NCBI GenBank assembly: GCA_017395085.1
Contig: JAFPWF010000017.1
Location: forward strand, 1-64,000
Source of the DNA: Oscillospiraceae bacterium
Lineage (GTDB): Bacteria; Bacillota; Clostridia; Oscillospirales; Oscillospiraceae
Direction of reading: 5' to 3'
Length of the DNA stretch: 64,000 bases
The notes beneath the pieces are model-generated. The model did not search any database and was not told the origin of the DNA. It saw nothing but the letters and a program-made list of their open reading frames with translations. Of the stretch, positions 11,155-44,971 are shown one piece after another. The position numbers were made by a program, and so were the translations under genes. How positions within the stretch are numbered: the first letter of the stretch is position 1; each line of letters opens with the position of its first letter.

Positions 11155-11516
11155 AGATCACGCCGCTGCAGCGTCGTGCAACCCGCAACTCCAGTGCAAA
11201 TGCTTTTGCAACTGTACAGAGCTGCGGGTGTTTTTGTTCTGTATCGCGTTCGTGCAATATTACAATTTTTGGCAAATAAGCATATGACTTTCATCAGCAT
11301 GCCCCTTTGATGCATTCTTGAAATGATACTCACAGGGACACTGTCGTTTCGTTTTTCCACATCCCACATCTTGTGTTTTCTGACGAAAACTCCGGATGAA
11401 AGCAAAGACTTCTTGTTGCGTGTTGAATACATTTGTAGTAGTATAACATTGGTTTAATGGATCTTGACGAAACAACTACATATGTAATACAATAGTAAAT
11501 GAATTAGGAGCTGTCT

Positions 11517-11708
11517 ATGGCTGAATCAAAGTTTCAGATCACACCGAAAAAATACATTGGAGAATCGTCAGTGGTTTCCCTGCGCATGCCGAAGGACATG
11601 CTGCGGGACATTGATGAGATTGCGGCAAAAACAGGGCGTACGAGGAACGAGTTTATGCTGATGAGCTTGGAATTTGCCTTGGATCATCTTGAGATTGAAG
11701 AGAAATAA
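11517..11708 (+). CDS. ribbon-helix-helix (CopG/Arc-like) DNA-binding protein
   Basis: 63 aa. A beta-strand-like stretch followed by two helices (SLRMPKDMLRDIDEIAAKTGRTRNEFMLMSLEFAL). Confidence 0.45.
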   Translation: MAESKFQITPKKYIGESSVVSLRMPKDMLRDIDEIAAKTGRTRNEFMLMSLEFALDHLEIEEK

Positions 11709-11726
11709 CACGGGGAGTTGAGTATC

Positions 11727-14429
11727 ATGCCCATCATCAAATGCAAAATGTGCGGCGGCGATATAGACCTCGCTGCGGATAAGACTTTTGGAACCTGCGA
11801 ATACTGCGGCTCCACCATGACGCTGCCAAAGGTGTCGGACGAACAGAAGGCGGCCGCATTCAACCGCGGCAACCACTTCCGGAGGATCGGCGAGTTTGAC
11901 AAAGCTCTTGCCGTCTATGAGCGCATCGTCGCGGAGGACGACACCGATGCGGAGGCGCACTGGTGCTGCGCCCTCTGCCGCTTCGGCATCGAGTATGTGG
12001 AGGATCCCGCCACCTATGAATGGATGCCGACCTGCCACCGTGCAAGCTTCGACAGCTTCCTGGAGGATGTGGACTACCTTGCCGCGATAGAGAATTCAGA
12101 CGGTATAACGCGCCGTCAGTACCAGAAGGATGCCGCGAAGATTGCAGAGGTGCAGCGCGGCATTCTGGCGACCTCCCAGAACACGGAGCCGTATGACGTA
12201 TTTATCAGCTACAAGGAACTGGATGAAAACGGCAGCCGTACCCGCGACAGTATTTTGGCGCAGGAAATCTACTACCGGCTGACGGAAAAGGGCTGGCGGG
12301 TGTTCTTCTCACGCATATCCCTGGAGGACGTGCCCGGCACGCAGTATGAGCCGTACATCTTTGCTGCTCTGAATAGTGCAAAGGTGATGATTGTTGTTGG
12401 AACCAGCGCAGAAAATCTCAATGCGGTGTGGGTCAAGAACGAGTGGAGCCGCTTCCTATCCATGATGCGCAAGGATCGCTCGAAACTCCTGATTCCCTGC
12501 TACCGCGACATGGATCCTTATGATCTTCCGGAGCAGCTCGCGGTGCTGATGAGCTATGACATGGGGAAGATCGGTTTTGTGCAGGATCTGATCCGCGGCG
12601 TGGATAAAGTGTTGACCGCGGAGAAGAAGGAGCCGGTTAAAGAGACGGTGAAAGAAACCGTTGTCGTCCAGCAGCCCGGCGGCGGGCCGAATGTTACGGC
12701 GCTTCTCAAACGCGGCCAGCAGGCGCTTGAGGACAGCGAATGGGACAAGGCCAGAGAATACTATGATCAGGTTCTCAACATGGATGCTGAGAACGCAGAG
12801 GCGTTCCTCGGTCTGTTCCTGGCAGGCGAAAAGTGTGAAGAAGAGAACGCTTATATAGAGAGGGCCTGCACGAAGAAAGGCGCGACAGAGACCCTGAATG
12901 TTCCGTCCGCGGCTGACCGCATCAATGAGAATGCTGCAAAGTACAAGCTCGACCATTACCTATTCGATGGCGACATTCGAAAACTGTTCGATTATGATTT
13001 ACAATATCCAACCACACTCCGGACGCAAAAGCTTGTCGCAGAGCAGGAAAAAGCAAGCTTTCAGAATGATAGGAATCTCAACCGGGCATTTCGCTATGCA
13101 AAGGGCGATGTGGCAGCGAGACTGAACGCATTCAAAACGCAGTTGTTTGCCGGGTTGGACCGTAACGTCACACAAGCAGAGGAACAGGAAGAAGCAGCTA
13201 GAGAAGAGAAGAAAGCTGCATACGAGGTGTTCCTGGACAATGCGGAAAATCTTGCACAGGAGAAAAACGAGCAGGCACAGGCGAGGAAAGAAGAAGATTA
13301 TCAGGCACTTTGCCGCCGTATTTCAGAAGCGAAAACGATAAAAGAATTTGACGTTGCAAAATATAAGCTTTTCCCCTACTTCAATGACTATAAGGACAGT
13401 GCGGAGCAGTACAAGCGCATAGAAGAAGGAATTGCAAGGTTGGAAAAAGAGGCTGCAGAAGAAGCGGAAGCGGAACGCCTGCGCAAGGAAGTCGAAGCAA
13501 AAGCCGTCGCGGAAGAAGCTGAGCGTCAGGAGGAGCAGAAGCGTATTGCAGCAGAAAAGGCAGATAAGAAACGTAAAAAAACGATCGCAACTAACACGCT
13601 GATCATTGTTGCCTGCATTGTGTTTGTAACCGTGTTGAAGTTCGTGATCATTCCTAACCAGAGACTCAATAAATCAGTGGCAATGATTGATGCTGGCGAT
13701 TACAAGGCGGCATACCTTCTTCTAGATGGTATGGATTATAAAAATAGCAAGGAGCTTCAGGAAAGCATAAAATTGCAATACGAAAAAGAATGCATTTCTG
13801 AAGCGCAGGTCCGTTCATATGTTCCTTTTGGTTCTTATGAACAGGATAACGATTCCGAAAACGGGAAAGAAGACATAGAGTGGCTTGTGCTAGCAAAGAA
13901 AGATGATAGAATCCTAGTCATTAGCAGATATGCTCTAGACTGCCAGCGATTCAACACTTCAGCGACAAGTGTTACATGGGAAACCTGTTCAGTGCGTAAA
14001 TGGCTAAATGAAACATTTCTGAACAACGCTTTTTCCGAGGAAGAGCGTGCCATGATTCCCAATATGATTGTCACTGCGGACAATAACCCTGACTACAGCA
14101 TAAGTCCAGGAAAAAGCACGACGGATCAGATGTTCCTGTTTAGCATTAGAGAAGCGAATAACTATTTCAATACAAATAATGCACGGCAGTGTCAGGGAAC
14201 TCCTTACTGCTTTGCACAGGGGGCCTATAAAGACAACAGTGGTAATTGTTGGTGGTGGTTGCGGACCCCTGGATTTGATACCGAACACGCTGCGATCGTT
14301 CGTAGTGACGGCTCCATCTATTCCACCTCGGATATTAACGGGGATGGCTCTTTATATTCCAGCGGTTATGGAGTCACTCTCAAAGATGTAGCCGTCCGTC
14401 CTGCGATGTGGATAGATTTGACGACATAA
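11727..14429 (+). CDS. membrane-anchored TIR-domain protein with an N-terminal zinc ribbon + TPR module and a C-terminal extracytoplasmic domain
   Basis: CKMCGG..CEYCGS zinc ribbon. TIR motifs (YDVFISYKELD..., WVKNEWSRF with conserved Glu). Long coiled coil. Transmembrane helix (TLIIVACIVFVTVLKFVII). DUF6273-like C-terminus. Confidence 0.7.
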   Translation: MPIIKCKMCGGDIDLAADKTFGTCEYCGSTMTLPKVSDEQKAAAFNRGNHFRRIGEFDKALAVYERIVAEDDTDAEAHWCCALCRFGIEYVEDPATYEWMPTCHRASFDSFLEDVDYLAAIENSDGITRRQYQKDAAKIAEVQRGILATSQNTEPYDVFISYKELDENGSRTRDSILAQEIYYRLTEKGWRVFFSRISLEDVPGTQYEPYIFAALNSAKVMIVVGTSAENLNAVWVKNEWSRFLSMMRKDRSKLLIPCYRDMDPYDLPEQLAVLMSYDMGKIGFVQDLIRGVDKVLTAEKKEPVKETVKETVVVQQPGGGPNVTALLKRGQQALEDSEWDKAREYYDQVLNMDAENAEAFLGLFLAGEKCEEENAYIERACTKKGATETLNVPSAADRINENAAKYKLDHYLFDGDIRKLFDYDLQYPTTLRTQKLVAEQEKASFQNDRNLNRAFRYAKGDVAARLNAFKTQLFAGLDRNVTQAEEQEEAAREEKKAAYEVFLDNAENLAQEKNEQAQARKEEDYQALCRRISEAKTIKEFDVAKYKLFPYFNDYKDSAEQYKRIEEGIARLEKEAAEEAEAERLRKEVEAKAVAEEAERQEEQKRIAAEKADKKRKKTIATNTLIIVACIVFVTVLKFVIIPNQRLNKSVAMIDAGDYKAAYLLLDGMDYKNSKELQESIKLQYEKECISEAQVRSYVPFGSYEQDNDSENGKEDIEWLVLAKKDDRILVISRYALDCQRFNTSATSVTWETCSVRKWLNETFLNNAFSEEERAMIPNMIVTADNNPDYSISPGKSTTDQMFLFSIREANNYFNTNNARQCQGTPYCFAQGAYKDNSGNCWWWLRTPGFDTEHAAIVRSDGSIYSTSDINGDGSLYSSGYGVTLKDVAVRPAMWIDLTT

Positions 14430-14772
14430 TGTTCCAGTTTTCTGACTTCTGAACGAAATTGTTATGTAGGATAAGGTGTTCCTTCTGAGTCAACTTGAGG
14501 CAGAGAAATACTTTTCTTCTGACTATGAACGAAGGTGCGAGCCGACTAAATACGCTGAAGAGATGGGCTGTAGGACTCTTGTGTGGTAGAGCGACTGGTG
14601 GCTGCGAATACGAGGTATCGACTCGGTGTGGATTATATGGTCCACGTATGACGGCGAAGTAGGTGTTGCAGGAGCGATAGCCAATGCTGAAGGGGCTGTG
14701 GTGAGACCGATTTTATTGGTAGATTTTGAATCTTGATTCTTACAGGAATGGGAAAGAAAAGGAGTGCGTGCC

Positions 14773-15693
14773 ATGGATACTATGGCGTTGTCATCAGTTG
14801 AATTAAGAAAATACAATCCAAGTACTCCAGATGAATTTTACAAATTGGCCGCTAGGACAGCAAGCTTCTATTATCACACACGATTAGAGACGGCTATAAA
14901 GATTCTTTCTGGGGAAGAAATAGTGTTTTTTATCAGCCCGATAAGCAACATGAATGATGAAAACGAAATAATTCTTCACGAAAGAGAACAAAATTGCACC
15001 TATATACTTTGCTTTTCGCATATACAAACTGAAAGCATTCCCATGTGGTATTTGTATAGTGGGATAACAGGAGAGGGATCACGAATAGGATTCACGCCAG
15101 CAAGAATGAGAGATATTCTTGAAAGCGCTATTGAAGTATACCCTGTCTATCGGAGGCAGATAGATACTTCCAAATCGTTACACATCGACGATGACTACGC
15201 TGTTGAGTATGGTTGGGTATTCTATCGCAATAAAGAGGACAATTCTATCAAGTATAAAGGAGACAAGTGTATTATACGTGACTCAATGCATTCATTTGAA
15301 AAAGGCAATTTTTTTGTCAAAGACAGTGAATGGAGTTATGAAAAAGAATTTCGTATCGTATTTAAACTAAATCGCACCTTACCAGAGCAAATAGCACTCG
15401 TGCTAAATAAAAAGAAGATGATGGCAGATGATGGATTGAAAGTGACACTATCGCCAAGGATTAGTGAGGCAGATATGGAAATGATAAAAGCCAAAATGGG
15501 TTTACCGGCTAAGCACATTTCAACAAGTAAGATAAAAGCCAAAATGGATTTGCTTAGCCGAAATCGGCAGAGTATAGTGGAGCATTTTCCGGAGGTCGTT
15601 TCTGGACTAAATATGGATGAACTAGAGTCAATCATCAAGCAAGTTGAAGCCGAACTCATTGTGCAGAAAGAAAAGGAGTTAGCCCATGTCTAA
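14773..15693 (+). CDS. DUF2971-like hypothetical protein
   Basis: Low-GC gene. The SPISNMNDENE segment resembles the DUF2971 'FNDPxE' motif. Confidence 0.35.
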   Translation: MDTMALSSVELRKYNPSTPDEFYKLAARTASFYYHTRLETAIKILSGEEIVFFISPISNMNDENEIILHEREQNCTYILCFSHIQTESIPMWYLYSGITGEGSRIGFTPARMRDILESAIEVYPVYRRQIDTSKSLHIDDDYAVEYGWVFYRNKEDNSIKYKGDKCIIRDSMHSFEKGNFFVKDSEWSYEKEFRIVFKLNRTLPEQIALVLNKKKMMADDGLKVTLSPRISEADMEMIKAKMGLPAKHISTSKIKAKMDLLSRNRQSIVEHFPEVVSGLNMDELESIIKQVEAELIVQKEKELAHV

Positions 15694-17521
15694 ATTTGTA
15701 ATCGAATGTCCCAATTGTGGGAAATATGCGGAAGCGCGAACCGGCTTTTTCGCCCGCAAGAAGCTCGACTGTTCCTGCGGTTACACCATCAATGTCCGCA
15801 CAGATAAGCTTACTGGTCGGGAGTGTCCGCACTGTGGCAACATGGTCGTTTTCGACCAAAGTGAAGGTGAAAGGGCAAAATGTCCCGTTTGCGGTGAGCC
15901 GATCAACACCATGACCGAGCAGGACAAGATGGCAGAGTTTTCCTGCGCCCAGTGCGGCGTGCGCCTGCGCACGAATAAGAGCGCGGAGAAGTACGTCTGC
16001 CCGGTCTGCGACTTTGAGAATTTCATTCCCGAGCGGCTCATGAGCGAGCAGATCAAGAAGGACGGTCTCGCCAGCATCATCAAGTACGAGGGCGATAACG
16101 ACACCCTGGTCTGGAAGCATCCCATCGAGGACTTCAACTACGGCTCGCAGCTCATCGTCCATGAGAGCCAGGAGGCGATCTTCTTCCGGGACGGCCAGGC
16201 GCTTGATCTTTTCGGACCGGGCCGCTACACGCTGGAGACGCAGCAGCTCCCGCTCCTGGAGAAGGTTTATAAGCTTCCCACCGACACCGAGGGCACCTTC
16301 CACAGCGAAGTATACTTTATCAACAAGGCCGTGCAGATGGCCATCAAGTGGGGCACGCCCGAAAAGGTGCGCTTCATCGATCCGCTGACCGGCGTTCCGC
16401 TGGAACTCGGCGCGTCCGGGGAACTGAACCTGATGGTCTCCGACTCCCGCAGGCTGCTCCTGAAGCTGGTCGGAACCATGAAGGGCATTGCCTGGGGCGA
16501 CAGTGAGGGTTTCACCAAGTCCGTACAGGCCTCTTTTCGCCCCCTGATCACCACGGCGGTCAAGGCAAACCTCTCCAGCGTCATCAAGGACAACGCCATC
16601 GACCTGTTGGAAGTGGACGAGAAGCTGGAGATGATCTCCGAACACTTGCGTGAGAAACTGCTTCCCGGCTTTGAGGAATACGGTCTTACGATCCCGCAGT
16701 TTTATGTGACGAGCATCGTCCTGCCAGAGAACGATCCCAACTTCAAGCGCATCCGCGAACTGCACACCATCACCCTGCAGGCGAGAGCGTACCAGGCAGA
16801 AGCGACCGTCCTGACGGCGAAGGCGCAGAGCGAGGCGCAGTACCGCACGGCACAGGAGCAGAGCAAGGCAGCCATCGAGGCTGCCCGCCGCGGCGCCGTG
16901 CTGGAGCAGCAGACGACCGAGACCGAGATTGCCCGCCGTGAAGCGGAGCGGAGGGTTATTGCCGCCCAGGCGGATGCACAGGCGCAGCGCATGGCCGGTC
17001 TGACCGAAGCGGAAATCATGGCCGCCAAGGGTTACAGCCAGAAGGATGTACTGCAGGCCGAAGTGCAGAAAGCCTATGCCGAAGGCATCGGCAACATGGG
17101 ACCGGCCATCTCCGGCGGCGGCGGAAGCGGTATCCTTGGGGATATGCTCGGCCTCGGGGTCGGCATGGCTGCGGCAAGCACTGTCGCGCCGCAGATCGGA
17201 GAGATGATGCAGGGCTTTCGGGCTCCCGGGGCAGCAGCACCTGTTGCCGCGTCAGGCGGCTGGGACTGCCCGGGCTGCGGTACCAGGAATATCCAGAGCC
17301 GCTTCTGTCCGGAATGCGGCGCAAAGAAACCGTCGCCTGCGGCAGCACCCGCAACGGACTTTTGGGATTGCCCCTCCTGTGGAACTAAGGGCATCACGAG
17401 TAAGTTTTGCCCCGAGTGCGGTGCCAGAAGGCCTTCTCTGACCTGGACCTGCCCGGACTGCGGCACTGCGGATATCAGGAGCAAATTCTGCCCCAACTGC
17501 GGCAGAAAAAAGGATGAATAA
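15686..17521 (+). CDS. SPFH/band-7 (flotillin-like) protein with N-terminal zinc ribbons, a coiled coil and three C-terminal zinc-ribbon repeats
   Basis: Multiple CxxC pairs at the N-terminus. SPFH-like core. Ala/Gln-rich coiled coil. Three repeats of W(D/T)CPxCGT..I.S(R/K)FCPECGA at the C-terminus. Confidence 0.6.
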   Translation: MSKFVIECPNCGKYAEARTGFFARKKLDCSCGYTINVRTDKLTGRECPHCGNMVVFDQSEGERAKCPVCGEPINTMTEQDKMAEFSCAQCGVRLRTNKSAEKYVCPVCDFENFIPERLMSEQIKKDGLASIIKYEGDNDTLVWKHPIEDFNYGSQLIVHESQEAIFFRDGQALDLFGPGRYTLETQQLPLLEKVYKLPTDTEGTFHSEVYFINKAVQMAIKWGTPEKVRFIDPLTGVPLELGASGELNLMVSDSRRLLLKLVGTMKGIAWGDSEGFTKSVQASFRPLITTAVKANLSSVIKDNAIDLLEVDEKLEMISEHLREKLLPGFEEYGLTIPQFYVTSIVLPENDPNFKRIRELHTITLQARAYQAEATVLTAKAQSEAQYRTAQEQSKAAIEAARRGAVLEQQTTETEIARREAERRVIAAQADAQAQRMAGLTEAEIMAAKGYSQKDVLQAEVQKAYAEGIGNMGPAISGGGGSGILGDMLGLGVGMAAASTVAPQIGEMMQGFRAPGAAAPVAASGGWDCPGCGTRNIQSRFCPECGAKKPSPAAAPATDFWDCPSCGTKGITSKFCPECGARRPSLTWTCPDCGTADIRSKFCPNCGRKKDE

Positions 17522-17562
17522 ACTTGCAGGGGAATTGATAATAAGAGAAGGGATGGTTGAGC

Positions 17563-18261
17563 ATGGCGAACTGCGCTAATTGCGGAAGAAGAATTACAGC
17601 TTTTAACTCTGATCCTCACTTTAATTTCAGCGACCAAACGTTGTGTCAGAACTGTTCGGACACTTTTAATTCGTTGCTGATGGATAATAAAATGGGTTGG
17701 AACAGTGTAGGTATCACAAGAAGATTTATTAGACAGAATAAAGACAGACTCAGATTAAATGATTCAGGTATTGAGTTTCTGCTTTCGTATGCTGACTACA
17801 TCCAAAAAAACAATCCGGATGGGGCGGAAGATGAAGAAGATGAGGAAAAGTTAGAGGAGGAAGAACTTAAAAGAAAAGAGGAAGACTTGGAAAAAAGAAT
17901 CGCTCTGTCCAAGATGCTGATCTCTTCCGGGTTCAATTTTGAAGGATATCGTATCGTAAAATATTCGGGTTATATTTCGGGTGACGATGCCATTCAGATT
18001 CCCCGAAGTGGTATATTTGATCGGGGAAGGAATGGCGAAAACCTGACGGATGCTCTTGTTAAGATCAGGAGAAGAGCGCTGATCGAATTAAAAGAAGCTG
18101 CGTATGATCTCGGCTGCAATGCGGTAATCGGCGTAGACTTTGACTATCTTACGCTGGATCCGGAAACGGCGTCACTGACAGGCGGAACTGTCTACGAACC
18201 GTATGTCATCTGCGTTACCGCAAACGGCAACGCTGTGGTGATCGAGAAAATCGAGGATTAA
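17563..18261 (+). CDS. zinc-ribbon protein with a C-terminal YbjQ/UPF0145-like domain
   Basis: CANCGRR..CQNC at the N-terminus. The C-terminal GYRIVKYSGYISGD...LGCNAVIGVDFDY matches the UPF0145 pattern. Confidence 0.5.
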   Translation: MANCANCGRRITAFNSDPHFNFSDQTLCQNCSDTFNSLLMDNKMGWNSVGITRRFIRQNKDRLRLNDSGIEFLLSYADYIQKNNPDGAEDEEDEEKLEEEELKRKEEDLEKRIALSKMLISSGFNFEGYRIVKYSGYISGDDAIQIPRSGIFDRGRNGENLTDALVKIRRRALIELKEAAYDLGCNAVIGVDFDYLTLDPETASLTGGTVYEPYVICVTANGNAVVIEKIED

Positions 18262-18263
18262 AC

Positions 18264-18527
18264 ATGCTGGCAAATGCAATAAAATGCCCGATCTGCGGCG
18301 GGAAAGAATTTGAGGAAAACAAGGGGGTCCGGACCTGCCTCTATTGTGGTACACAGTTTCAGATTCCCAAAGAGGAACTGCCGAAAAAGAAATCGGAAAT
18401 TGCTCTGAACAGCGATGTGGAAAGACTCCTTGATAAGTGCAGAAAAGATCCGAAGAACGCACGAAAGTATGCGAATCTGATACTGGATATTGATCCTACA
18501 AATCGCGATGCCCTGAAGTATCTGTGA
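18264..18527 (+). CDS. small zinc-ribbon + TPR-like protein (resembles the TIR protein's N-terminal module)
   Basis: CPICGGKEFEE..CLYCGT followed by a helical TPR-like tail. Confidence 0.4.
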   Translation: MLANAIKCPICGGKEFEENKGVRTCLYCGTQFQIPKEELPKKKSEIALNSDVERLLDKCRKDPKNARKYANLILDIDPTNRDALKYL

Positions 18528-18553
18528 GCAGGATAGGAAAGAGAGGAAAAACC

Positions 18554-19240: not shown

Positions 19241-19285
19241 AACTGTATTTTGTCGATAATAAACCGGTTGATAGATTAGATAACA

Positions 19286-19320
19286 AAACCGAGAGGTTAA
19301 TCCCTCTCGGTTGTTTCTTA
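19286..19320. terminator. bidirectional intrinsic terminator (aaccgagagg-ttaatc-cctctcggtt)
   Basis: Perfect 10-bp stem flanked by A-run and T-run, between convergent genes. Confidence 0.55.
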
Positions 19321-21182: not shown

Positions 21183-21221
21183 AATGATATAATACTTGAG
21201 ATTAGGAAATAGAGTGTTGTA

Positions 21222-36305: not shown

Positions 36306-37766
36306 ATGCTGGAAGATAAAGTCAGGGAAGTATTTGCTGATATGATTGTTTTGAAAGACCCGCAACGCAGCGAGTATTTTTCAAATCTCAGTATTCCCTC
36401 ATATATGCGCGATTGGCTGGTCATGAAGTTTTCGGATGAAGACGGTTCGATTGACTACGACAGCGTTCGTCGTTATATCAAGCGGTACATTCCGAGTCGT
36501 GAGGACTTCGAGCAGTACAAGTTCCAGATGGTAAATGGTGAAATTGTTCAGTTTCTTGCCCGTGTTCGTGTTTCTGTCGATGTTAAGCGTGGTAAGACAA
36601 TGTTTGAACTGCCGGATTTCGGCGGTTCAAGAGGCGGTGCTGCCGGTGTCGTTGCTTATGATGTGGCTGAAGAGTGGCAGGAAACGCTGCTCCGCGAGAG
36701 CGAAAACTGGGGTATTGTCACATTATCCTGGGTTATGGAGGGGACACCATCCAATCCAAAGGGCGTTATCAGCATGGTAGATTACAGGCCGTTCTGCCCG
36801 TATTCAGTTGATCTGGAAGTTTATCGCGAAGCCCGGCGTGAATTTGACATTCATGAGTGGATTGATACGGTAATCCGGGCTGTGGATTATAATCCGGACG
36901 GTTACTGCGACAAGGATGGCAATGTGAGCGAGGAGACAAAGCTCTTCTTTCTGAGAAGGCTTCTGCCGTTTGTTGAGAAACGGGTTAACTTGATTGAGCT
37001 TGCTCCAAAAGGCACAGGCAAAAGCTACGTTTTTGAAAAAATCAGCAAACGCGGCTGGCTGATCAGCGGTGGTACTGTATCAAGGGCGTCTCTCATTTAT
37101 GATAATGCCAAGAAAACCGGCGGGTTGCTGACACGATTTGATTATGTCGGCTTTGATGAAGTGCAGTCCATCACATTTGAGCAGCCAGGTCAGATCCAAC
37201 AGGCGTTGAAACACTATATGGAATTTGGCGAGATTAAAGGCTTCGATGCCATGCTAACGGCGGATGCGGGCGTTATTGTTCTTGGCAACATTAACGCAGA
37301 TCGCTTTGATATCAATAAAAACATGGTTGAGCATATCAGTGATGTGTTTGGTGAATCTGCAACCTTGGACCGTTTCCACGGGTTTATCCCTGGATGGGAG
37401 ATCCCGAGAATGACTACGGGGATGATCGCCAAAGGCTGGGCGATTAATACGGAATATTTCGCAGAAGTGATGCATGCGCTTCGGGATGATCTGAGTTACG
37501 CGGCTATTGTGGATGAGCTGATTGATTATCCCTCAAACGCAGATAAACGCCATATGACCGCAATTAAACGTCTGTGCACTGCTTTTATGAAGCTTTTGTT
37601 CCCGCATGTTCAATCGGTAGAGGATATTGATAAGCAGGACTTTATCAAGTATTGTCTGAATCCCGCTATAGAGATGCGGTCGGTTATCTACAGGCAGCTC
37701 TGCATTATCGATCCGAAAGAATATAATGTGAAAAGCAAGCAGATACCTGAAGTTGTTTGTGTGTGA
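36306..37766 (+). CDS. brxL: BrxL-like AAA+ ATPase (N-domain + ATPase; appears to lack a Lon-protease-like C-terminal domain)
   Basis: N-terminal MLEDKVREVFADMIVLKD..YMRDWLVMKF resembles the BrxL N-terminus. Walker A APKGTGKS. Walker B YVGFDEVQS. Only 486 aa. Confidence 0.5.
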   Translation: MLEDKVREVFADMIVLKDPQRSEYFSNLSIPSYMRDWLVMKFSDEDGSIDYDSVRRYIKRYIPSREDFEQYKFQMVNGEIVQFLARVRVSVDVKRGKTMFELPDFGGSRGGAAGVVAYDVAEEWQETLLRESENWGIVTLSWVMEGTPSNPKGVISMVDYRPFCPYSVDLEVYREARREFDIHEWIDTVIRAVDYNPDGYCDKDGNVSEETKLFFLRRLLPFVEKRVNLIELAPKGTGKSYVFEKISKRGWLISGGTVSRASLIYDNAKKTGGLLTRFDYVGFDEVQSITFEQPGQIQQALKHYMEFGEIKGFDAMLTADAGVIVLGNINADRFDINKNMVEHISDVFGESATLDRFHGFIPGWEIPRMTTGMIAKGWAINTEYFAEVMHALRDDLSYAAIVDELIDYPSNADKRHMTAIKRLCTAFMKLLFPHVQSVEDIDKQDFIKYCLNPAIEMRSVIYRQLCIIDPKEYNVKSKQIPEVVCV

Positions 37767-37786: not shown

Positions 37787-38902
37787 TTGATTTATGCTGA
37801 CAACGCGGCCACAACAAGAATGGATCTTGCCGCTTATCATGCTATGCAGTCCTGGCTTCAGGTAGAATACGGGAATGCATCGCAGCCGTATTCTTATGCC
37901 CGGAAACCGAAACAGGCGCTTGCAAATGCACGGGAGATCATAGCGGCTTGTATCAACGCTCAACCGGATGAGATATATTTCACTTCCGGTGGAACGGAAA
38001 GCGATAACTGGGTGATTAAAAGTTCGGCTTTCTCTGATCCGGATCATCGTGAGACAATAACGACAGCTTTCGAGCATCATGCTGTTTTGAATTCGTGCGC
38101 GGTGATTGAGCGGCTGGGGTATCCGGTTTCTTATCTTATGCCAGATGAAAGTGGCAAGGTGTTGCCGGAGGCTCTCAGGGCTAAAATCACAGACAGGACC
38201 AGACTTGTTTCCGTCATGTTCGCGAATAATGAGATCGGGAGCATTCAACCGATTCGCGAGTTGTGTTCCGTGGCGCATGAGCATGGCGCGTTGTTCCATA
38301 CCGATGCGGTGCAGGCTGTAGGGCATGTGAAGATTGATGTCAAAGAACTGGGAGTTGATTTTCTCTCTTCTTCCGCTCATAAATTCAATGGCCCGAAGGG
38401 AATAGGTTTTCTCTATATTCGCAACGGCGCTGATTTACTGCCCTACATGGACGGCGGTGCGCAGGAAAAGAAGCATCGTGCAGGGACAGAAAACATTGCT
38501 GCAATATCGGGTATGGCGGAAGCATTAAAGGGAAATTGTGAGTACATGGAGCAGAATGAGGAACACATACGCGGTCTGGAAACCATGATCCTTAATGCCC
38601 TCTCAGCTGCCGGCGTTCGGTTTCAACGCAACGGCGGGGATTATACTCTGCCGGGGTTGATGAGTTTGTCATTCCCCGGGTTTTCAGGTGAAGCGATTCT
38701 TCACAGGATGGATTTGATGGGGATTTGCATATCAACCGGGTCGGCTTGCGACAGTGTAAATACGGAGATTTCTCATGTACTGAGGGCCATTAATCTGGAA
38801 GACTCCCTGGCAACGGGGACAGTTCGAATCTCGCTGGGCAAGTTCAATACAGTTGAAGATGCTGCTAGGATTTCTGAGTCGCTGATCAGAATCGTAAAGT
38901 AA
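37787..38902 (+). CDS. cysteine desulfurase (class V aminotransferase, NifS/IscS/DndA-like)
   Basis: IYADNAATT..., FTSGGTESDN, PLP-lysine region SSAHKFNGPKGIGFLY, and active-site Cys region GSAC. 371 aa. Confidence 0.8.
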   Translation: MIYADNAATTRMDLAAYHAMQSWLQVEYGNASQPYSYARKPKQALANAREIIAACINAQPDEIYFTSGGTESDNWVIKSSAFSDPDHRETITTAFEHHAVLNSCAVIERLGYPVSYLMPDESGKVLPEALRAKITDRTRLVSVMFANNEIGSIQPIRELCSVAHEHGALFHTDAVQAVGHVKIDVKELGVDFLSSSAHKFNGPKGIGFLYIRNGADLLPYMDGGAQEKKHRAGTENIAAISGMAEALKGNCEYMEQNEEHIRGLETMILNALSAAGVRFQRNGGDYTLPGLMSLSFPGFSGEAILHRMDLMGICISTGSACDSVNTEISHVLRAINLEDSLATGTVRISLGKFNTVEDAARISESLIRIVK

Positions 38903-38924
38903 GTACCGGAAAGTTGGTTTTGCT

Positions 38925-40007
38925 ATGTCCATCATTTTTGAGGAAAGTTCTGAACCTGTAGTTTCCACTGCTTCTAAAGATAATTCCGGTAGAAGAAGTG
39001 CTTTTGCGCTTGATGCTATTCAAGGACAGTCTAAGGCAGTTGACTTATTGAAATCATACTGTCGTGAAGCAAAAGAAAAGAATATTCCTCTGGAGCATAT
39101 ATTGCTATCCGGTTCTAGCGGTTTAGGAAAAACAGTGCTTGCTGAAGCAATAGCAGGTGAGATGGATGCCGTTTTAAGAGAGTTTTCAGGCAGTTCCATC
39201 TCCTCCGATGCTGCTCTTGTTAAGGCATTGACCACTATCAATGAAGGCGATGTGCTGATAGTTAAAGATATCCACAAGTTGAATATCGTGAAAATGAAGT
39301 ATTTCAGCCAGCCTCTGAAGCGTTTCGAAATTGATTTGGATATTATGGATAGTACTATTCATCTTGAACTGCCACATTTCACGATGATTGCGACGACGAA
39401 TCAGCCTGATCTGCTCGCTGATGAAGTGAGAAATGCTTTTGATATCCAGCTTGAATTAGAGTCGAATGTGGTCGAAAACATTCACCTGAGGAAAGGCAAC
39501 AGGGTTTGTTTTAACTCGTTGCCTTTTGTCTCTCTATATATTGCAAATGTCATCGGTTATTATGATGCTCAAGGAAATGCTTTTTTTGTATCTGATCGGA
39601 ACATGGATGCAGATTTCAAAGACGATATAGTTTTGATCAAGAAATCTTCTGCTCTGGATAGTGTTTTTAAGAATGTTTCAGAGTTTACTATTTCGCCCTG
39701 CCTTTGCGTGGGAAGGAAGCGAGGCGTTTATTATGTACAACCTTCGGAGACGGTTGAGTTATTATTAGAAAGAGATGTTGAGAGAAAAGCGAAAAAAGTC
39801 AATGCCCCTTTTCTGCCGTCGCATCCCTTAACTGTGGAATGCAGAGTTGAAAAACAGGACCCATGGCTGTTGGAAGCCAGAATAATCAATGTATCTGCAG
39901 ATACTTCAATTCTTGATGACGAAGGGAACATTGATCCAACGGCGCTGTTTCATGAGTTGATGTATCTTCGAATGGGTGATTATCAAGAGAATGAAGCATT
40001 AGAGTAA
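38925..40007 (+). CDS. RuvB-like AAA+ ATPase paralog with a degenerate Walker B
   Basis: Collinear similarity to the RuvB N-domain: [23 protein letters not shown] ~ [33 protein letters not shown] aligns to RuvB VLFIDEIHRL, so D-E is replaced by K-D. The C-terminal 150 aa are unrelated. Confidence 0.6.
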   Translation: [360 protein letters not shown]

Positions 40008-41401
40008 TGATGAGGTTTAATGAGAAGTTAAAAGAGAATATATCCGAAATAGTTGTAACAGTCCGCAAAATAGAGAAGATCCTGACTGAGAAACAGGTAT
40101 TGCAGGAGTCTGTAATTAATCAGATCGCACACACATGCACGAGACTGGCGCTGCTGGCAATGGCAGCCTCAGATGAACTTGAGGTTGCAGGTGCTGTTGA
40201 AGACCGTCTGGTTCAAAGAGAGGTTGCGACTGCTCTATGGCAGATGGCACTCCATTTTATTGATATCCAGCAGGGCTGTAAGCTTGATGAGTTGCGTTAT
40301 CATTTCAAGCTGATAGGGAAACACAGTAACAGTGTTTTACAGCTGCTCGGTCTGCCTGAGCCGTTGTTTGTGGATAGTGGTGTTGTAGAGGGGAAGCCCT
40401 CTAATGATTCTGTGATTACCCGTGCGCAACCAATGGCATCTCCGCAAGATGATGGTAATGGTGTGTTTTCGGCCGGTTCTTCAATTGCTGTTCCCTTGAA
40501 TAATGTAAATGAAGAAGAGCGGCTGAGACGCGAAGTAAAGTCTTTGCGAGAGATCCTTTCTTCTTTGCTTCTGAAACGCGACCATCTTCTGCTGGTAGAA
40601 AGCAAGGAATTGGAAGCGTGGTATCTGAGGGAACTCGGCAATCTTGAGATTGAGGTCTTTTATGAAGAAAGCAATGCCAGATATTTGCAGCGGAAATATG
40701 AGCTTCTGGTGGCGGCGGTTAATCGCAGCGAGAAGATATCCAGGGAAGAGGTAGAGAACAAACTCAAGGAACAGGCAGAAACCTTCCGTAAAGCTTATGA
40801 GGAATATATGCGTCACGCGCAGGAGACCAACGATACGGTTCGGCAGCGTCGCGAAAACGTGAAAAATGCTGCCAATAAAAACGGACAGGAAGAAAAAAGG
40901 AATGAGGATGCTGTTGAGGCTGATGATGTAAGCAACGTCAAAGATCAAAGATCTGAGGAAGAGCCGCCAGAGGGAGAGAAGCGCCTGAAGCAACTCTACC
41001 GGAAACTCGTTAAGGCAATGCATCCGGACCTGCATCCCGATCAGGATGATAAAACGAAAGAACTGTTTAAGAGAGTGATTCATGCCTACGAGACGGGCGA
41101 TCTTCAGACGCTTGAAGAAATAGACAGCATAATCAACGGATTTGTTCCGGAAGAAAGCGGAAATCCATATGGTGCGCTTCTAGTAGAAAAGCAACGACTC
41201 CTGCAAATGATTCAGAGCATCCGTGCTCAGATTTTTATGATTCTTGGTCGTTTCCCCTTTACAAAACGAGAGCTGTTAAATGACCCCGCAAGATTGAAGT
41301 TAGAGCGTGAAAAACTGGAGGATCGTTTGATAAAGGCAAAAGAAAAGGCAAGAGCCTACAATGAGCGTATTATCGAGATTGAAAGGCAGCAAAATGGATG
41401 A
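40007..41401 (+). CDS. coiled-coil protein with a C-terminal J-domain (DnaJ-like)
   Basis: LYRKLVKAMHPDLHPDQ...ELFKRVIHAYE shows the helix II/III spacing with the HPD tripeptide. Long N-terminal coiled coil. The start overlaps the upstream stop (TAATG). Confidence 0.55.
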   Translation: MMRFNEKLKENISEIVVTVRKIEKILTEKQVLQESVINQIAHTCTRLALLAMAASDELEVAGAVEDRLVQREVATALWQMALHFIDIQQGCKLDELRYHFKLIGKHSNSVLQLLGLPEPLFVDSGVVEGKPSNDSVITRAQPMASPQDDGNGVFSAGSSIAVPLNNVNEEERLRREVKSLREILSSLLLKRDHLLLVESKELEAWYLRELGNLEIEVFYEESNARYLQRKYELLVAAVNRSEKISREEVENKLKEQAETFRKAYEEYMRHAQETNDTVRQRRENVKNAANKNGQEEKRNEDAVEADDVSNVKDQRSEEEPPEGEKRLKQLYRKLVKAMHPDLHPDQDDKTKELFKRVIHAYETGDLQTLEEIDSIINGFVPEESGNPYGALLVEKQRLLQMIQSIRAQIFMILGRFPFTKRELLNDPARLKLEREKLEDRLIKAKEKARAYNERIIEIERQQNG

Positions 41402-41843
41402 TTTAATTCTGAAACCTGCAGATGCCGAACTGGTTTCAATGCTCGACAGCTGGAAAGCTTTGAGCATGCCAATGCCTTATGAACGCGATATTTATCTTTT
41501 AGCTGTTCCGGTTGCAGGTACAAGTTATAAAGAGAATATCGGCGAGCTGGCAGAGCATCTGTCAGAAGGAGATCTGGTAACGCTGATCCGTGAGCCGGAG
41601 AATCCATACGATGAATTTGCCATCAGAATGGATGTGGATCTGGATGGCGTTCCGGGCATTGGTCCGGGTGAAGGGGATAAAAACAATCTGACTAGGAAGA
41701 TGGGTTATATTCCGCGGGCGACAAATAAAGTGTTTGCCCGCCTGATGGATGCTGGAAAACTGCTGTTTGGCGTGATTAGAAGTGTAGATATGATAACGGA
41801 TGATTATTACCGTATCATGGTAAAAATCTACATGCGTGATTAA
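41394..41843 (+). CDS. HIRAN-domain protein
   Basis: VAGTSY...GDLVTLIREPENPYDEFAIRMDV...GYIPRATNKVFARLMD matches the HIRAN consensus. ATGGATGA overlap with the upstream gene. Confidence 0.6.
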   Translation: MDDLILKPADAELVSMLDSWKALSMPMPYERDIYLLAVPVAGTSYKENIGELAEHLSEGDLVTLIREPENPYDEFAIRMDVDLDGVPGIGPGEGDKNNLTRKMGYIPRATNKVFARLMDAGKLLFGVIRSVDMITDDYYRIMVKIYMRD

Positions 41844-41877
41844 AGAACCGTTATCGTAAGTGCCGGGGGGTGCTTTT

Positions 41878-42801
41878 GTGGCGAAGGACAACAGACAGAA
41901 GATTAAGCTTTTGTATCTCATGGAGATGCTGCGGCAGGATACGGACGAGCAGCACCCGCTGACTACCAGTGAGATCTGCAGGCGGCTGGGGGTGAAGGGC
42001 ATCACCTGCGAGCGGCGCACCGTCGGCATGGATATGAAGGTGCTGAATGATTTCGGATACGAGGTCATGTCCTGCACGGTCGGGCATGAAAAGGCCTACT
42101 ATGTGGACGACCGCAGTTTTTCCGTACCGGAGATCAAGATTCTCATGGACGCGGTGCAGGCGGCAAAGTTCATCACGCCGGGAAAGAGTGATGCGCTGGT
42201 TTCAAAACTCGCCGCACTGGGCGGCAGCCATCAGGCGGAGATCCTGAAGAGCAACATCGTCTGTTTCAACACGCGCAAGCACACCAACGAGATGATTTTC
42301 TATAATGTTCAGGCGTTGGAGGATGCGATCCGGGAGCGGAAAAAGGCTTCGTTTCTGTACTTCGACCTGAATGAGAAGCGGGAGCGGGTATACCGCAGGG
42401 ACGGCGCGAGGTACGTGGTGGATCCCATGGCGCTCGTGTACGACGAGGACAATTATTATCTCCTGTGCTACAATCTGAAGCACGAAAACGTGACCACCTA
42501 CAGGGTAGATCGGATGGAACGGGTTTGCGTGGAAGAGGAGGATGTCTGCCCGCAGGCAATTGTGGAAAGGGACATCCACGGCTACACTTCGCAGGTCTTC
42601 AAGATGTTCAACGGCGAAGCGAAGGAGTTTACCATCGTGTTTGACGAGTCCCTGCTCGGAGCGGTTTATGACCGGTTTGGGGAAGAGGTCGAAGTCCGGC
42701 GGGTCGGGGAGAAGCTCTGCAGCATTACGGTCACCGTGCAGGACAGCCCGGTGTTCCGTGGCTGGCTTGCGCAGTTCGGCGATCTGGTTAACATCGCATA
42801 A
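41878..42801 (+). CDS. second WYL-domain transcriptional regulator (paralog of the gene at 22180; high-GC copy)
   Basis: N-terminus KIKLLYLMEMLRQDTDEQHPLTTSEICRRL parallels RILYILQILQEGSDQEHPVTIVEIITQL. About 300 aa. Confidence 0.6.
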   Translation: MAKDNRQKIKLLYLMEMLRQDTDEQHPLTTSEICRRLGVKGITCERRTVGMDMKVLNDFGYEVMSCTVGHEKAYYVDDRSFSVPEIKILMDAVQAAKFITPGKSDALVSKLAALGGSHQAEILKSNIVCFNTRKHTNEMIFYNVQALEDAIRERKKASFLYFDLNEKRERVYRRDGARYVVDPMALVYDEDNYYLLCYNLKHENVTTYRVDRMERVCVEEEDVCPQAIVERDIHGYTSQVFKMFNGEAKEFTIVFDESLLGAVYDRFGEEVEVRRVGEKLCSITVTVQDSPVFRGWLAQFGDLVNIA

Positions 42802-42836
42802 AAATCGACAGTTAAAGCGCGTCCCGTTTTTCCCTC

Positions 42837-42891
42837 TTGACGGGGAGACCGGGCGCGTTTATAATGCAGTCAAACAGAAATAATTATTTCT
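42837..42891 (+). promoter_or_regulatory. putative lexA promoter (TTGACG-N17-TATAAT) with a 16-bp perfect palindrome AGAAATAATTATTTCT just downstream
   Basis: -35 at 42837-42842, -10 at 42860-42865. Palindrome at 42876-42891, about 25 nt upstream of the lexA ATG. Confidence 0.35.
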
Positions 42892-42914
42892 TTTTGAGAA
42901 GCAGAGGTGTCTGT

Positions 42915-43517
42915 ATGCAGTACAAGAAGCCGGAGTATTTTGCCGGGATCGAGCGTTTCATCGATGAATACAAGGATATGAACGGGGGAGCCTCCCCGTC
43001 CATGAAGGTGATCGCCCGGGGCGTCGGCCTTTCGGAAGGCACCGTGTGCAAGTATCTCAAGGTGATGCGGGAGAAGGGGATTGTCGAGTGCGAGGGCCAC
43101 AGGCACATCACGACCCGCCGGTCGCGGGGTGACGCGCAGGGGTCCTTCCAGGCGCCCGTCGTCGGCACGATCGCCTGCGGGCTCCCGATTCTCGCGGAAG
43201 AGAACATCGAGGAGTATGTGCAGCTCCCCGTGTCGCTCTTCGGGAAAGGGGAGTTCTATGTTCTCCGGGCGAAGGGCGACTCGATGATCGACGCCGGCAT
43301 TGACGACAGGGACCTGGTTGTGGTAAGGCAGCAGAACACAGCGGACTATAATCAGATTGTGGTGGCGCTCATTGAGGACGAGGCCACCCTGAAGCGGTAC
43401 CGTCCTGAGGCGGACCGGGTCATCCTGCATGCGGAGAATCCGGAGTTTGAGGATATCATTGTGGATTCCTGTGCCATTCAGGGTGTGGCCGTCAAGGTGA
43501 TCAAGGATCTCACCTGA
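42915..43517 (+). CDS. lexA: LexA-family repressor (S24 peptidase)
   Basis: N-terminal wHTH. Ser-Lys dyad context (GDSMIDAGI...; ...EATLKRY) and a VVALIEDEATLKR-type C-terminal domain. Confidence 0.7.
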   Translation: MQYKKPEYFAGIERFIDEYKDMNGGASPSMKVIARGVGLSEGTVCKYLKVMREKGIVECEGHRHITTRRSRGDAQGSFQAPVVGTIACGLPILAEENIEEYVQLPVSLFGKGEFYVLRAKGDSMIDAGIDDRDLVVVRQQNTADYNQIVVALIEDEATLKRYRPEADRVILHAENPEFEDIIVDSCAIQGVAVKVIKDLT

Positions 43518-43540
43518 ATTGTTTCTTTTTACAATTGCCT

Positions 43541-43590
43541 CTTGACATCCGGCGATCTTTCTGTTATCTTATTACGCAGAACGGCGTAAT
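43541..43590 (+). promoter_or_regulatory. putative promoter/operator of the XRE-ImmA operon (TTGACA plus inverted repeat ATTACGC-N6-GCGTAAT)
   Basis: TTGACA at 43541. 7-bp inverted-repeat arms at 43569-43588. Confidence 0.3.
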
Positions 43591-43652
43591 ATGCGGATTT
43601 TGCGGAAGGAAGCCTGTTGCCGGCCTCGTGCGGGCCGTATGGAGGTATTTGT

Positions 43653-44051
43653 ATGAGAGAAGAGAATATGCGTTTTGGCCAGTTCATCCGCGCCAAACGC
43701 CTTGCCGACCGGCGGGAGCTGACACAGAAGGACGTCGCCGACCGGTTGGGGATCTCGCTGACCCTTCTCAGTGATATTGAGAAGAACCGCAGAAAGCCCT
43801 TTGACAGTGAGAAGATTGAAGCTTTCTGCGCTTTTCTGGAACTGTCAGACGCCGACCGCAGCCGCATGTACGACCTTGCCGCGCGGGAGACCGGTGAAGT
43901 TCCTTCGGATATTGACGACACCTTTATGTACTCCGATATCGGGGACATGGCGCGGCACGCCCTGCGCCTGTCAAATGCCGGTGTGATCGGGGAAGAGGAC
44001 TGGCGGGCCTTTATCCGCCAAATTGAGGAAAAACGGGGGAAACCGGATTGA
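43653..44051 (+). CDS. XRE-family HTH transcriptional regulator (ImmR-like)
   Basis: HTH_3 motif (LTQKDVADRLGISLTLLSDIEKNRRKP). Confidence 0.65.
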   Translation: MREENMRFGQFIRAKRLADRRELTQKDVADRLGISLTLLSDIEKNRRKPFDSEKIEAFCAFLELSDADRSRMYDLAARETGEVPSDIDDTFMYSDIGDMARHALRLSNAGVIGEEDWRAFIRQIEEKRGKPD

Positions 44052-44863
44052 TTCCTTTCCGCTGGCGCATACGGGATAAGACCCGCACGCCGATCATTCG
44101 CAATGAAGACATCTGGGAATATGCCGAGATGCTGGTCGGGGACTACCGGCCGTCCCTGCTGCGGGAGCCGGGCCCCATTCCCGTGGAGCATTTTCTGGAG
44201 AGCTATCTCGGCGCGTCTCTGGACTACCAGGATATTTACTTTGAACGGGGCGCGCAGCCCATTGCCGGCGCGACGGTTTTTAACGATGAGAGGATACGGG
44301 TGTTCGACCGCGAGGGCCAGTGTACACGGGTCATCGAAGTGTCGGCCAACACCATCATCATCGACAACTCAACTGTGGCAGCCGGAAACAGAGGGTTCGC
44401 GGCGTTTACCGGTTTGCACGAAGGCGGGCACTTTACCATGCATCCCGAAGTGTATCAGCTGAACCCGAATCAGTTCTGTCTATTTGAACCGCAGAAAGAC
44501 GGATCGGGCGCGGTCTGCTGCCGCAGGAGTTCTCTGAGCAAACGCTGGTGCGGCAAACTGACCCCCGAGCAGTACCGGGAGCACCAGGCGAACACCTTCG
44601 CCGCATTCACCGCCATGCCCAGGCAGACCTTTATCCCGCTCGCCGGGGAGCTCATCCGGAAGGCCGGATACAGGGACGGCATCTTCGTGGATGTGGAGAC
44701 AGACTGGGAGTGCGAGTCTTATCTGGAGAAGATCTGCAATGAGCTTGCCGGAGTCTACGGCATGTCCTTCACCGCGGTGAAGATTCACCTCCGGGAATTG
44801 GGCCTGCTGATGAATCTCCCTCAGTATCTGGATTATAAGGACCAGCTTGCGGTATCATTCTGA
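44048..44863 (+). CDS. ImmA/IrrE-family zinc metallopeptidase
   Basis: HEGGH zinc-binding motif (FTGLHEGGHFTMHPE). Overlaps the upstream XRE gene in the classical ImmR/ImmA arrangement. Confidence 0.65.
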   Translation: MIPFRWRIRDKTRTPIIRNEDIWEYAEMLVGDYRPSLLREPGPIPVEHFLESYLGASLDYQDIYFERGAQPIAGATVFNDERIRVFDREGQCTRVIEVSANTIIIDNSTVAAGNRGFAAFTGLHEGGHFTMHPEVYQLNPNQFCLFEPQKDGSGAVCCRRSSLSKRWCGKLTPEQYREHQANTFAAFTAMPRQTFIPLAGELIRKAGYRDGIFVDVETDWECESYLEKICNELAGVYGMSFTAVKIHLRELGLLMNLPQYLDYKDQLAVSF

Positions 44864-44971
44864 TTTGGTATTCACCGGCGGCCTGCCCGGCTACAGGTGC
44901 GGACCGCCGTATTTTTATCATGTGAAATTACGCAATTTTGCGGAATTTGCGGAAACAAGGAGGACTGTTGT

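Follow-up and report, generated by a model that had tools for sequence, protein, structure and literature searches.

The 64,000-nt stretch of contig JAFPWF010000017.1 analysed here (positions 1 to 64,000; GenBank assembly GCA_017395085.1; hereafter the window), from an Oscillospiraceae/Acutalibacteraceae-like gut bacterium, contains a mosaic island of 30.7 kb and lower GC content (11155 to ~41850) that lies between a phage late arm and a phage early arm (41860-58849). We hold it likely, with a probability of roughly 0.75, that this island, which includes a bacteriophage exclusion (BREX) type 4 gene set, is cargo within one phage and occupies a variable slot between the genes for lysis and those for lysogeny control. 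Cargo beside lysis genes is a well-known pattern, and in this respect the result is confirmatory rather than surprising; notable here are the size of the load, the association of a complete BREX type 4 gene set and its own cysteine desulfurase gene with a phage backbone, and an integration module that has apparently been relocated.

Composition and gene content mark the island off on both sides. Across 1-11 kb, windowed GC lies at 0.53-0.66; the stretch from there to 42 kb has 0.37-0.54 (apart from a single spike, at an SPFH gene), after which values of 0.54-0.64 extend as far as 57 kb and give way to 0.45-0.53 beyond. GC at third codon positions (GC3), taken gene by gene, is 0.60-0.92 in the late arm (at least 0.68 except in two small open reading frames [ORFs]) and 0.59-0.77 in the early arm, compared with 0.27-0.61 in the island, where the SPFH gene is an outlier at 0.75; the integrase gene stands at 0.57 and the chromosome flank at 0.54-0.65. 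The two arms are thus similar to each other, and neither the island nor the chromosome has their profile. The gene modules of the arms are complementary, late genes being found only to the left of the island and early genes only to its right (families were assigned from Pfam, NCBIfam and PADLOC profiles, and from Rfam and PDB matches). Chromosomal genes begin at ~59 kb and have their best relatives in metagenome-assembled genomes of Ruminococcaceae/Acutalibacteraceae (best match of the HMGL gene, 88%). A preliminary description of the window had placed ~30 kb of mosaic, mostly lower-GC DNA between the lysis cassette and a lysogeny-control/replication arm, which GC, GC3, and gene families all bear out; it had, however, run the island to 44900, about 3 kb too far, as 41860-44863 (the genes for WYL2, the LexA-like repressor and ImmR/ImmA) is phage backbone.

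Junctions of the island and content of the slot in relatives

Both junctions were placed by comparison with related loci (designated L followed by a number). On the left, alignment shows homology with three relatives ending at the endolysin stop codon; the relatives diverge from the window at the first base past it, with different content in each. On the right, homology to L227, a sister prophage treated below, and to L278 starts ~15 nt before the GTG start codon of the WYL2 gene, and the stop codon of a HIRAN-domain gene of the island lies 16 nt ahead of that gene. No recombinase or transposase was found among the island ORFs scanned, and neither direct nor inverted repeats flank the island. 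Nor were genes for a relaxase, a coupling protein or type IV secretion detected (Pfam; ORFs of at least 100 aa, small ORFs being scanned only in part), which argues against an integrative and conjugative element.

The slot is variable among related phages, with the same junctions enclosing different content. In a relative recovered from two samples (L278 and L279), the tape measure, tail, holin and lysin proteins are 72-85% identical to those of the window at the aa level, and on the same contig the lysin gene is followed by 4.4 kb of unrelated lower-GC cargo (encoding a 228-aa protein, an S41 peptidase, and a PepSY protein) and then by genes for WYL (82%), a DUF4352 protein, and LexA (70%). 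In L127, at least 10 kb of other low-GC cargo follows the lysin gene (Tox-GHH, TraG-like, zinc ribbon, VWA, PP2C, and kinase genes), and in NatCom_43819 ~8 kb of hypothetical genes follows the endolysin gene. The comparison with related prophages that the preliminary description had proposed, as a way of defining empty or alternative cargo at this site, thus yields a near-empty site and a boundary-resolved, cargo-swapping prophage slot in the poorly studied gut Oscillospirales, holding 4.4 kb in a relative versus 30.7 kb here. In wider searches, megablast of both arms against GenBank phages gave tiny matches only, and IMG/VR, scanned with the endolysin and with LexA, yielded nothing but mosaic relatives that have a single module in common with the window. 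A WYL2 scan of metagenomes found homologues in many unrelated contexts, some of them beside BrxP-like genes, but no closer relative of the junction.

The circular gene order of the element matches that of phi-m46.1, NatCom_43819, and Acutalibacter phage Fontainebleau (ON453893.1, 39.2 kb), and the succession of lysis genes, att site and/or cargo, and repressor is thus conserved. Fontainebleau, from a related host family, has a replication set 42-46% identical (aa) to that of the window and a capsid protein 56% identical; its lysin gene is the last and its integrase and regulator genes are the first, so that the lysis/lysogeny junction holds the integrase gene and no cargo. The phi-m46.1 group (mef(A)/tet(O)-carrying) comprises functional temperate phages with cargo (PMC9927172; PMC4288039; PMC4260502), and the circular map of phi-m46.1 places its accessory cargo, mef(A), between the lysis/att end and the repressor region. 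That group differs in having a serine recombinase gene after the lysin gene, rum as its target, resistance cargo of a few kb, and a genome of 52-58 kb, whereas the element described here has a tyrosine integrase and excisionase module after the SNF2 gene, lysS as its target, 30.7 kb of defence-type cargo, and a total length of ~72.5 kb. Because the integration module follows the SNF2 gene, the slot is internal to the prophage, and the module has apparently been relocated in this phage. Comparable hotspots in P2 and P4 (PMC9122126) are likewise fixed slots between conserved phage genes, with varying content rich in anti-phage systems; they differ in phage family, host phylum, and slot position, and hold a few kb as opposed to 30.7 kb (of which the BREX core takes ~10.6 kb).

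Attachment ends and the case for one element

The right end of the prophage lies within the window, where the tyrosine integrase gene is followed by three TACCACAA arm-type repeats with 11-nt spacing (the attR arm) and then by a displaced 3′ fragment of lysS that encodes a linker and a tRNA-binding domain. The left end was reached by exact look-up of the first complete late gene, which led to contigs from the same population. On one of these (scaffold_60; L233/L215, 197.5 kb), genes for FtsX, an S41 peptidase, and GreA precede an intact gene for a 660-aa lysyl-tRNA synthetase (LysRS) with its C-terminal tRNA-binding domain (L233 3815-5797); the fragment in the window corresponds to its last ~160 residues (79% aa identity, and 78% nt identity over ~390 nt). 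Directly after this lysS stop codon stand CTTACCACAA repeats, which are the arm-type repeats of the right end. Inside attL there follow ~9 kb of minor cargo (genes for an AAA_15 ATPase, a serpin, small ORFs, an ADP-ribosylglycohydrolase, and an RHH protein) and then terminase, portal, scaffold, and capsid genes, which run into a late arm of the window type at 99.9% identity that has no lysogeny or replication genes of its own. Exactly 134,677 nt lie to the right of the endolysin gene both in scaffold_60 and in the island-bearing, 146-kb scaffold_180, from which we conclude that the two share one right side. The att partner of the right end of the window is lysS, ~13.5 kb to the left of the window, and the att-delimited unit of ~72.5 kb, to which both flanks of the island belong, has a single set each of late and early genes.

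The pair of intact and displaced lysS ends, together with the arm repeats, is what a phage integrating within the 3′ part of lysS leaves behind. The lambdoid phage 21 and the element e14 reportedly integrate in icd, leaving a duplicated gene end; here too, the target gene is intact on one side of the element, and a divergent copy of its 3′ segment stands on the opposite side, the target being lysS (LysRS with a C-terminal tRNA-binding domain) instead of icd. An alternative identification of the tRNA-binding ORF as a fragment of metG was rejected, as the left-flank contigs show that it is a 3′ copy of lysS. Exact look-up of this ORF returned no record, a search with the partial serpin gave no candidate, and a search of genome contigs with the HMGL gene found no conserved synteny and hence no empty site. 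Between the attL arm repeats and the AAA_15 gene of L233 lies a CT-rich tract of ~1.2 kb (~6100-7300; GC 0.65-0.71) with recurring CTCCGC and GCAGATTG motifs.

These ends agree with the claim of the preliminary description that both arms belong to one element, and the att-site search that it had suggested placed the attR side in the window and the attL side at lysS on same-population contigs. Two neighbouring elements with att sites of their own, which it had named as the finding that would overturn the claim, were looked for without success: the window, including the island junctions, holds no second integrase, serine-recombinase remnant, further arm-repeat cluster, or further lysS fragment, and no att-like direct repeats were found within it, island ends included.

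A family of structured repeats also connects the two arms. A covariance model built from the copies (R1) finds exactly six in the window (~124 nt, 106-133 bits), whose stems show compensatory base-pair changes. The preliminary description had noted four copies in the late arm and a fifth in the other arm; the sharing stands, and the count does not, since a sixth copy lies within the SNF2 gene and a seventh, upstream of the window, lies between the portal and scaffold genes (L233 17883-18005). Further copies occur in L227 (18005-18122), in L125 (937-1060, 2387-2508, 7592-7710), and in L126, and the repeat is also found in a few IMG/VR phages, of which one (L211) is related to this phage and the others have no protein similarity to genes of the window. 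It is absent from the island, the chromosome flanks, and ~60 chromosomal loci of related Clostridia that were searched, which speaks against the concern, raised at the outset, that it might be widespread in host chromosomes; Rfam holds no matching family, even at E values up to 1. Copy 1 lies at a site left empty in L232, and copy 6 forms an in-frame insertion of ~46 aa in SNF2 that three homologues lack and that has a duplicated ITAA(S/N) motif at its flanks. Each late-arm copy ends in GAGGA, resembling a ribosome-binding site, which in copies 1 and 3 stands just ahead of the next start codon. The repeat thus behaves like a small mobile structured element confined to the backbones of phages. 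That both arms carry it speaks for their kinship but would not by itself prove a single element.

The main alternative, that the window instead holds a hybrid of sister prophages, with the late arm as the right half of a serine-recombinase prophage and the island, early arm and integrase as that of the lysS prophage, strikes us as unlikely. Homologous recombination (inversion or deletion) in the scaffold/capsid region common to both would have produced it, leaving the island between lysis and lysogeny genes as before but the unit no longer excisable as one phage. The sister prophage is present in the same samples (L227, scaffold_150, 6434-20321; also L228-L231), where chromosomal genes are followed by a serine recombinase gene, genes for WYL (83% identical to WYL2), LexA (82%), and sigma-like proteins, a UmuDC-like pair, Phd/ParE, terminase-488, portal, and capsid (94%), with no replication module between repressor and terminase in the stretch seen. 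Its capsid-region sequence is near-identical to that of the lysS prophage, which is probably why assemblies break there, many of them inside the capsid gene. One MEGAHIT contig, L216 (171 kb), is the closest match to the window (99.99% over window 1-11199) and joins the late arm to the terminase-488 left side of the sister, which L227 continues through to the serine recombinase and the chromosome; from the same sample, a contig with lysS and terminase-537 (L232) leads on to another variant of the capsid/tail genes. Either true recombination between the prophages or a chimeric assembly may have given rise to L216. The latter is plausible for a product of a k-mer assembler, from a sample with both prophage types, joined at a common break spot; moreover, two scaffold contigs from other samples (L215/L233 and L217/L234) link lysS and terminase-537 to the window-type late arm, and the lysS/lysS′ pair can be accounted for only by the lysS arrangement, be it present or ancestral.

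We consider it very unlikely that two neighbouring elements are involved, i.e. a prophage ending at the endolysin gene and a separate integrative element (satellite-like, resembling a phage-inducible chromosomal island [PICI], or a defence island equipped with replication and integrase genes) from 11.2 to 58.9 kb, even though the lysis cassette forms the prophage end in the close relatives L042 (structural genes 82-94% identical, endolysin 73%), L125/L126, and L277, where chromosome-type genes follow it, and even though the right arm has integrase, regulator, and replication genes without structural genes, and an integrase gene whose GC is below that of the replication genes. Around 11.2 kb there is neither an att-like site nor an arm-repeat cluster, a lysS fragment, or a second recombinase gene. 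Contrary to what a PICI or satellite would entail, neither the right arm nor the island has an att site, arm repeat, or lysS fragment on its left, and the partner, at lysS, lies beyond the structural genes; the late arm on scaffold_60 has no lysogeny or replication genes to itself; and in L278/L279 late genes and WYL/LexA are contiguous. Least probable of all is that the island is ordinary chromosome between two prophage remnants: some of its genes have host-like GC3 (TIR 0.58, BrxC 0.55) and chromosome-like genes follow the lysis cassette in the relatives just named, but no housekeeping genes were found in the island, whose content is defence-type or without known role, several of its genes have a GC3 of 0.27-0.38, well under that of the host flank, and the region is bracketed by a single att pair.

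Several observations weigh against regarding the island as cargo within one phage, beyond the L216 join, the breaks inside the capsid gene, and the relatives in which the prophage ends at lysis. The left att end is seen only on other metagenomic contigs, outside the window. As the structured repeats behave like mobile insertions, they are weaker evidence for a single element than the preliminary description assumed. L227 and L278 share a promoter/operator-like stretch upstream of WYL, and this apparently native control region is missing here. BREX type 4 is, as far as sequence profiles tell, the sole defence system confidently recognised in the island. Finally, at 72.5 kb the element appears too large: without the island it would measure 41.8 kb, close to the 39.2 kb of Fontainebleau, and among the top-listed phages whose capsid protein is homologous, genome sizes are 30.7-52.4 kb. 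It is therefore doubtful that the element is packaged whole. Size and loss of the WYL promoter/operator together point to a probably defective or only partly packaged prophage, and the island may have grown in place after integration.

With the island as cargo in one prophage, we envisage a temperate phage of siphovirus type that would have integrated through its tyrosine integrase into the 3′ part of lysS, giving the order lysS, attL, ~9 kb of minor cargo, terminase-to-lysis genes, island, WYL2/LexA/ImmR-ImmA, replication genes, excisionase and integrase genes, attR, and lysS fragment. On the circular map, the junction of lysis and repressor genes falls after the late operon has ended and before lysogeny control begins, and relatives have at this junction either the integration module or unrelated genes amounting to a few kb. 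Since no essential operon would be broken by insertions at this point, the slot could accumulate foreign genes, and we infer that the island was assembled from DNA of several lower-GC donors, the BREX type 4/phosphorothioation module included.

A more radical possibility, which we think improbable, is that the element is no ordinary phage any more but an oversized ‘defence prophage’, with regulators tied to the island and a machinery that mainly spreads it. Cargo (~40 kb) outweighs backbone (~32 kb), and the island would have replaced both an ancestral recombinase/attP module and the native WYL promoter/operator, so that WYL2 (perhaps also LexA) would now stand at the end of a brxL-dndA-AAA-DnaJ-HIRAN string. 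Since a promoter/terminator scan gave no excess over shuffled controls, co-transcription of WYL2 with the island is treated here only as a possibility. If it holds, prophage control would be coupled to the BREX type 4 island; and if packaging starts near the terminase genes and proceeds rightward (no pac site was identified), a headful would comprise the late genes and most of the island, so that the phage machinery would mainly spread the defence island, in a manner resembling lateral transduction, rather than itself. The size mismatch with the capsid family provides a test case for large defence loads grounding a prophage versus partial packaging.

The BREX type 4 module and other cargo

The contents that the preliminary description had listed for the island, i.e. 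TIR, zinc-ribbon, non-coding RNA, and BREX-4-like cargo, were recovered as a TIR_2 domain, zinc ribbons, a SAM riboswitch, and a full BREX type 4 set. The published definition of BREX type 4 is brxPCZL together with a brxR regulator, phosphorothioation also requiring a cysteine desulfurase (PMC12914056). In the island the four core genes are adjacent, full length, and in canonical order. As in the BREX type 4 loci of gut bacteria (PMC12914056), the order is brxP, brxC, brxZ (pglZ), brxL, with a gene for a WYL, BrxR-like regulator upstream; unlike those loci, which use the SufS or IscS of the host, the island has a dedicated DndA/SspA-like desulfurase gene directly after brxL, genes for a 1078-aa and a 222-aa protein between the regulator and brxP, and a location within a prophage, a word that occurs 0 times in that paper. 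Apart from the WYL match, the proteins of 22180-27151 gave no NCBIfam match and only a weak PADLOC match (ZorC ‘EH’). Genes for a RuvB-like AAA ATPase, a DnaJ-motif protein, and a HIRAN-domain protein follow the desulfurase gene (all within 37787-41843, plus strand; Pfam, NCBIfam), closely packed right up to WYL2. Gene content predicts a self-sufficient BREX type 4/phosphorothioation set, which the prophage presumably expresses, thereby protecting the lysogen from other phages. Such a set, complete with a desulfurase and carried on the backbone of a phage, suggests how systems of this kind may move between gut bacteria.

The left part of the island begins with genes for an RHH protein and a 903-aa protein with TIR_2 domain, neither of which has a PADLOC match. 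In another strain (L004 2374-5076, corresponding to window 11727-14429), the TIR gene carries two nonsense changes in the TIR domain (E to stop and W to stop, within the stretch ...SAENLNAVWVKNEW...), the 11.8-kb locus being otherwise 99.5% identical, which suggests that the protein is inactivated there. The block that follows (14764-21845) encodes DUF2971, SPFH and YbjQ-domain proteins, small and membrane ORFs, a zinc ribbon, a KTSC protein, and a 184-aa ORF on the minus strand; the DUF2971 protein has a weak PADLOC match to PDC-S31. The SAM riboswitch precedes the KTSC-domain gene rather than a gene of methionine/SAM metabolism, an unusual regulatory target.

Backbone features and minor observations

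Coordinates are collected in the table. The repressor and immunity genes are followed by a replication arm in which genes for an RpoD-like sigma factor, PolA, HNH, a DUF2815 single-stranded-DNA-binding protein, a DUF2800 nuclease, and a 216-aa ORF occupy the minus strand, and those for a D5-type primase, a 109-aa ORF, and an SNF2 helicase the plus strand. The Streptococcus phages phi-m46.1, phi-1207.3, and phi-SsUD.1 are alike in having PolA, DUF2815, and DUF2800 genes on one strand and primase, small ORF, and SNF2 genes on the other. The replication proteins are 46-57% identical (aa) to those of phi-m46.1, in the same order and on the same strands; to judge from sequence, this likeness reflects kinship of the replication module only, the structural genes being unrelated. 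The idea that the minus-strand PolA block is an inversion of a canonical co-linear order was rejected, as phi-m46.1 natively has the same divergent layout.

Features of the window (positions in nt; empty cells, no entry)
Feature	Position	Strand	Basis or remark
Phage late arm	1-11154	+	ORFs; Pfam on identical contigs; 99.9% identical to L215/L216
Structured repeat, copy 1	1215-1338	+	Covariance model R1; late arm
Structured repeat, copy 2	1805-1965	+	Covariance model R1; late arm
Structured repeat, copy 3	2466-2588	+	Covariance model R1; late arm
Structured repeat, copy 4	9711-9834	+	Covariance model R1; late arm
Holin	9879-10352	+	Pfam
Endolysin, CHAP + PG_binding_1	10345-11154	+	Pfam
Hairpin + T-run past endolysin stop	11181-11236	+	Read by eye; not called by scan tool
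Accessory island	11155-41850	+	Mosaic, lower GC
RHH protein	11517-11708	+	Weak RHH match
903-aa zinc-ribbon/TPR/TIR_2/DUF6273 protein	11718-14429	+	Pfam; TIR_2 E 3.9e-11
SPFH + multiple zinc ribbons	15686-17521		Pfam
Zinc-ribbon ORF	19318-19800	-	Pfam
SAM riboswitch RF00162	20127-20213	+	Rfam, 47.8 bits vs gathering score 44.4
KTSC-domain protein, membrane-anchored	20298-21182	+	Pfam; downstream of SAM riboswitch
WYL/WCX regulator, BrxR-like	22180-23154	+	Pfam; PADLOC WYL match
1078-aa and 222-aa proteins	within 22180-27151	+	Upstream of brxP; no confident family
BrxP	27166-29487	+	PADLOC E 7e-207; Pfam PAPS_reduct
BrxC/PglY	29507-33712	+	PADLOC E 2e-62
PglZ	33739-36096	+	PADLOC E 9e-28
BrxL	36306-37766	+	PADLOC E 1e-186; Pfam BrxL_N, BrxL_ATPase
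DndA/SspA-like cysteine desulfurase	37787-38902	+	PADLOC DndA E 2e-123
WYL2	41860-42801	+	Pfam; GTG start
LexA-like S24 repressor	42837/42915-43517	+	Pfam, gene calls
XRE ImmR-like protein	43617-44051	+	Pfam
M78 ImmA-like protein	44048-44863	+	Pfam
Small sigma-like protein	45460-46050	+	Pfam
Replication arm	46110-56570	both	Pfam
Structured repeat, copy 5	49655-49778	+	Replication arm
Structured repeat, copy 6	55895-56019	-	In frame within SNF2 gene
Excisionase-like ORF	57288-57485	+	NCBIfam TIGR01764, 27.3 bits, below cut-off of 28.8
Tyrosine integrase, Tn916-type arm-binding N-terminus	57515-58849	+	Pfam Phage_integrase + Integrase_DNA
Three arm-type repeats (attR arm)	58871-58900	+
Displaced lysS 3′ fragment	59024-59512	+	PDB matches: aminoacyl-tRNA synthetase C-terminal domains
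HMGL-like synthase, chromosomal	59602-61191		After lysS fragment

The phage sigma factor (46110-47024, minus strand) is an RpoD-like primary sigma factor, 51-56% identical to host RpoD, that contains regions 1.2-4 without region 1.1 and has just three close relatives (90-98%) among 5.8 billion proteins. It looks like a captured, host-type housekeeping sigma factor and not like a typical small phage sigma factor. A homologue search with it was uninformative for phage kin, because host RpoD proteins dominate the matches to such a captured rpoD-like gene.

The late arm comprises the 3′ end of the capsid gene, head-tail genes, and genes for a Gp15-like protein, a 438-aa tape measure, a 554-aa tail protein, holin and endolysin; L215 and L216 extend it leftward to scaffold, portal, and terminase. 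The hairpin past the endolysin stop codon is likely the late-operon terminator, and L042 and L127 have a different hairpin at the matching position. If its tail and lysis regions match those of the window in length, the sister prophage L227 would span ~24 kb from recombinase to lysis.

Minus-strand morons stand between the tail genes (window 3586-4877 and 7068-7337), encoding a radical SAM protein (3993-4877) and a 136-aa ORF; those of L042 (1215-1796, 3642-5423, and 6817-7155, minus strand) encode metallo-beta-lactamase-fold, carboxylesterase, PCC-domain, and YgbA_NO proteins. Morons of the tail genes thus differ between close relatives and form a second set of variable slots, within the late operon. 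An intergenic repeat of ~60 nt, with copies 90-93% identical, occurs at 2019-2077 in the window and at 2052-2111 and 3795-3838 in L278, both intergenic.

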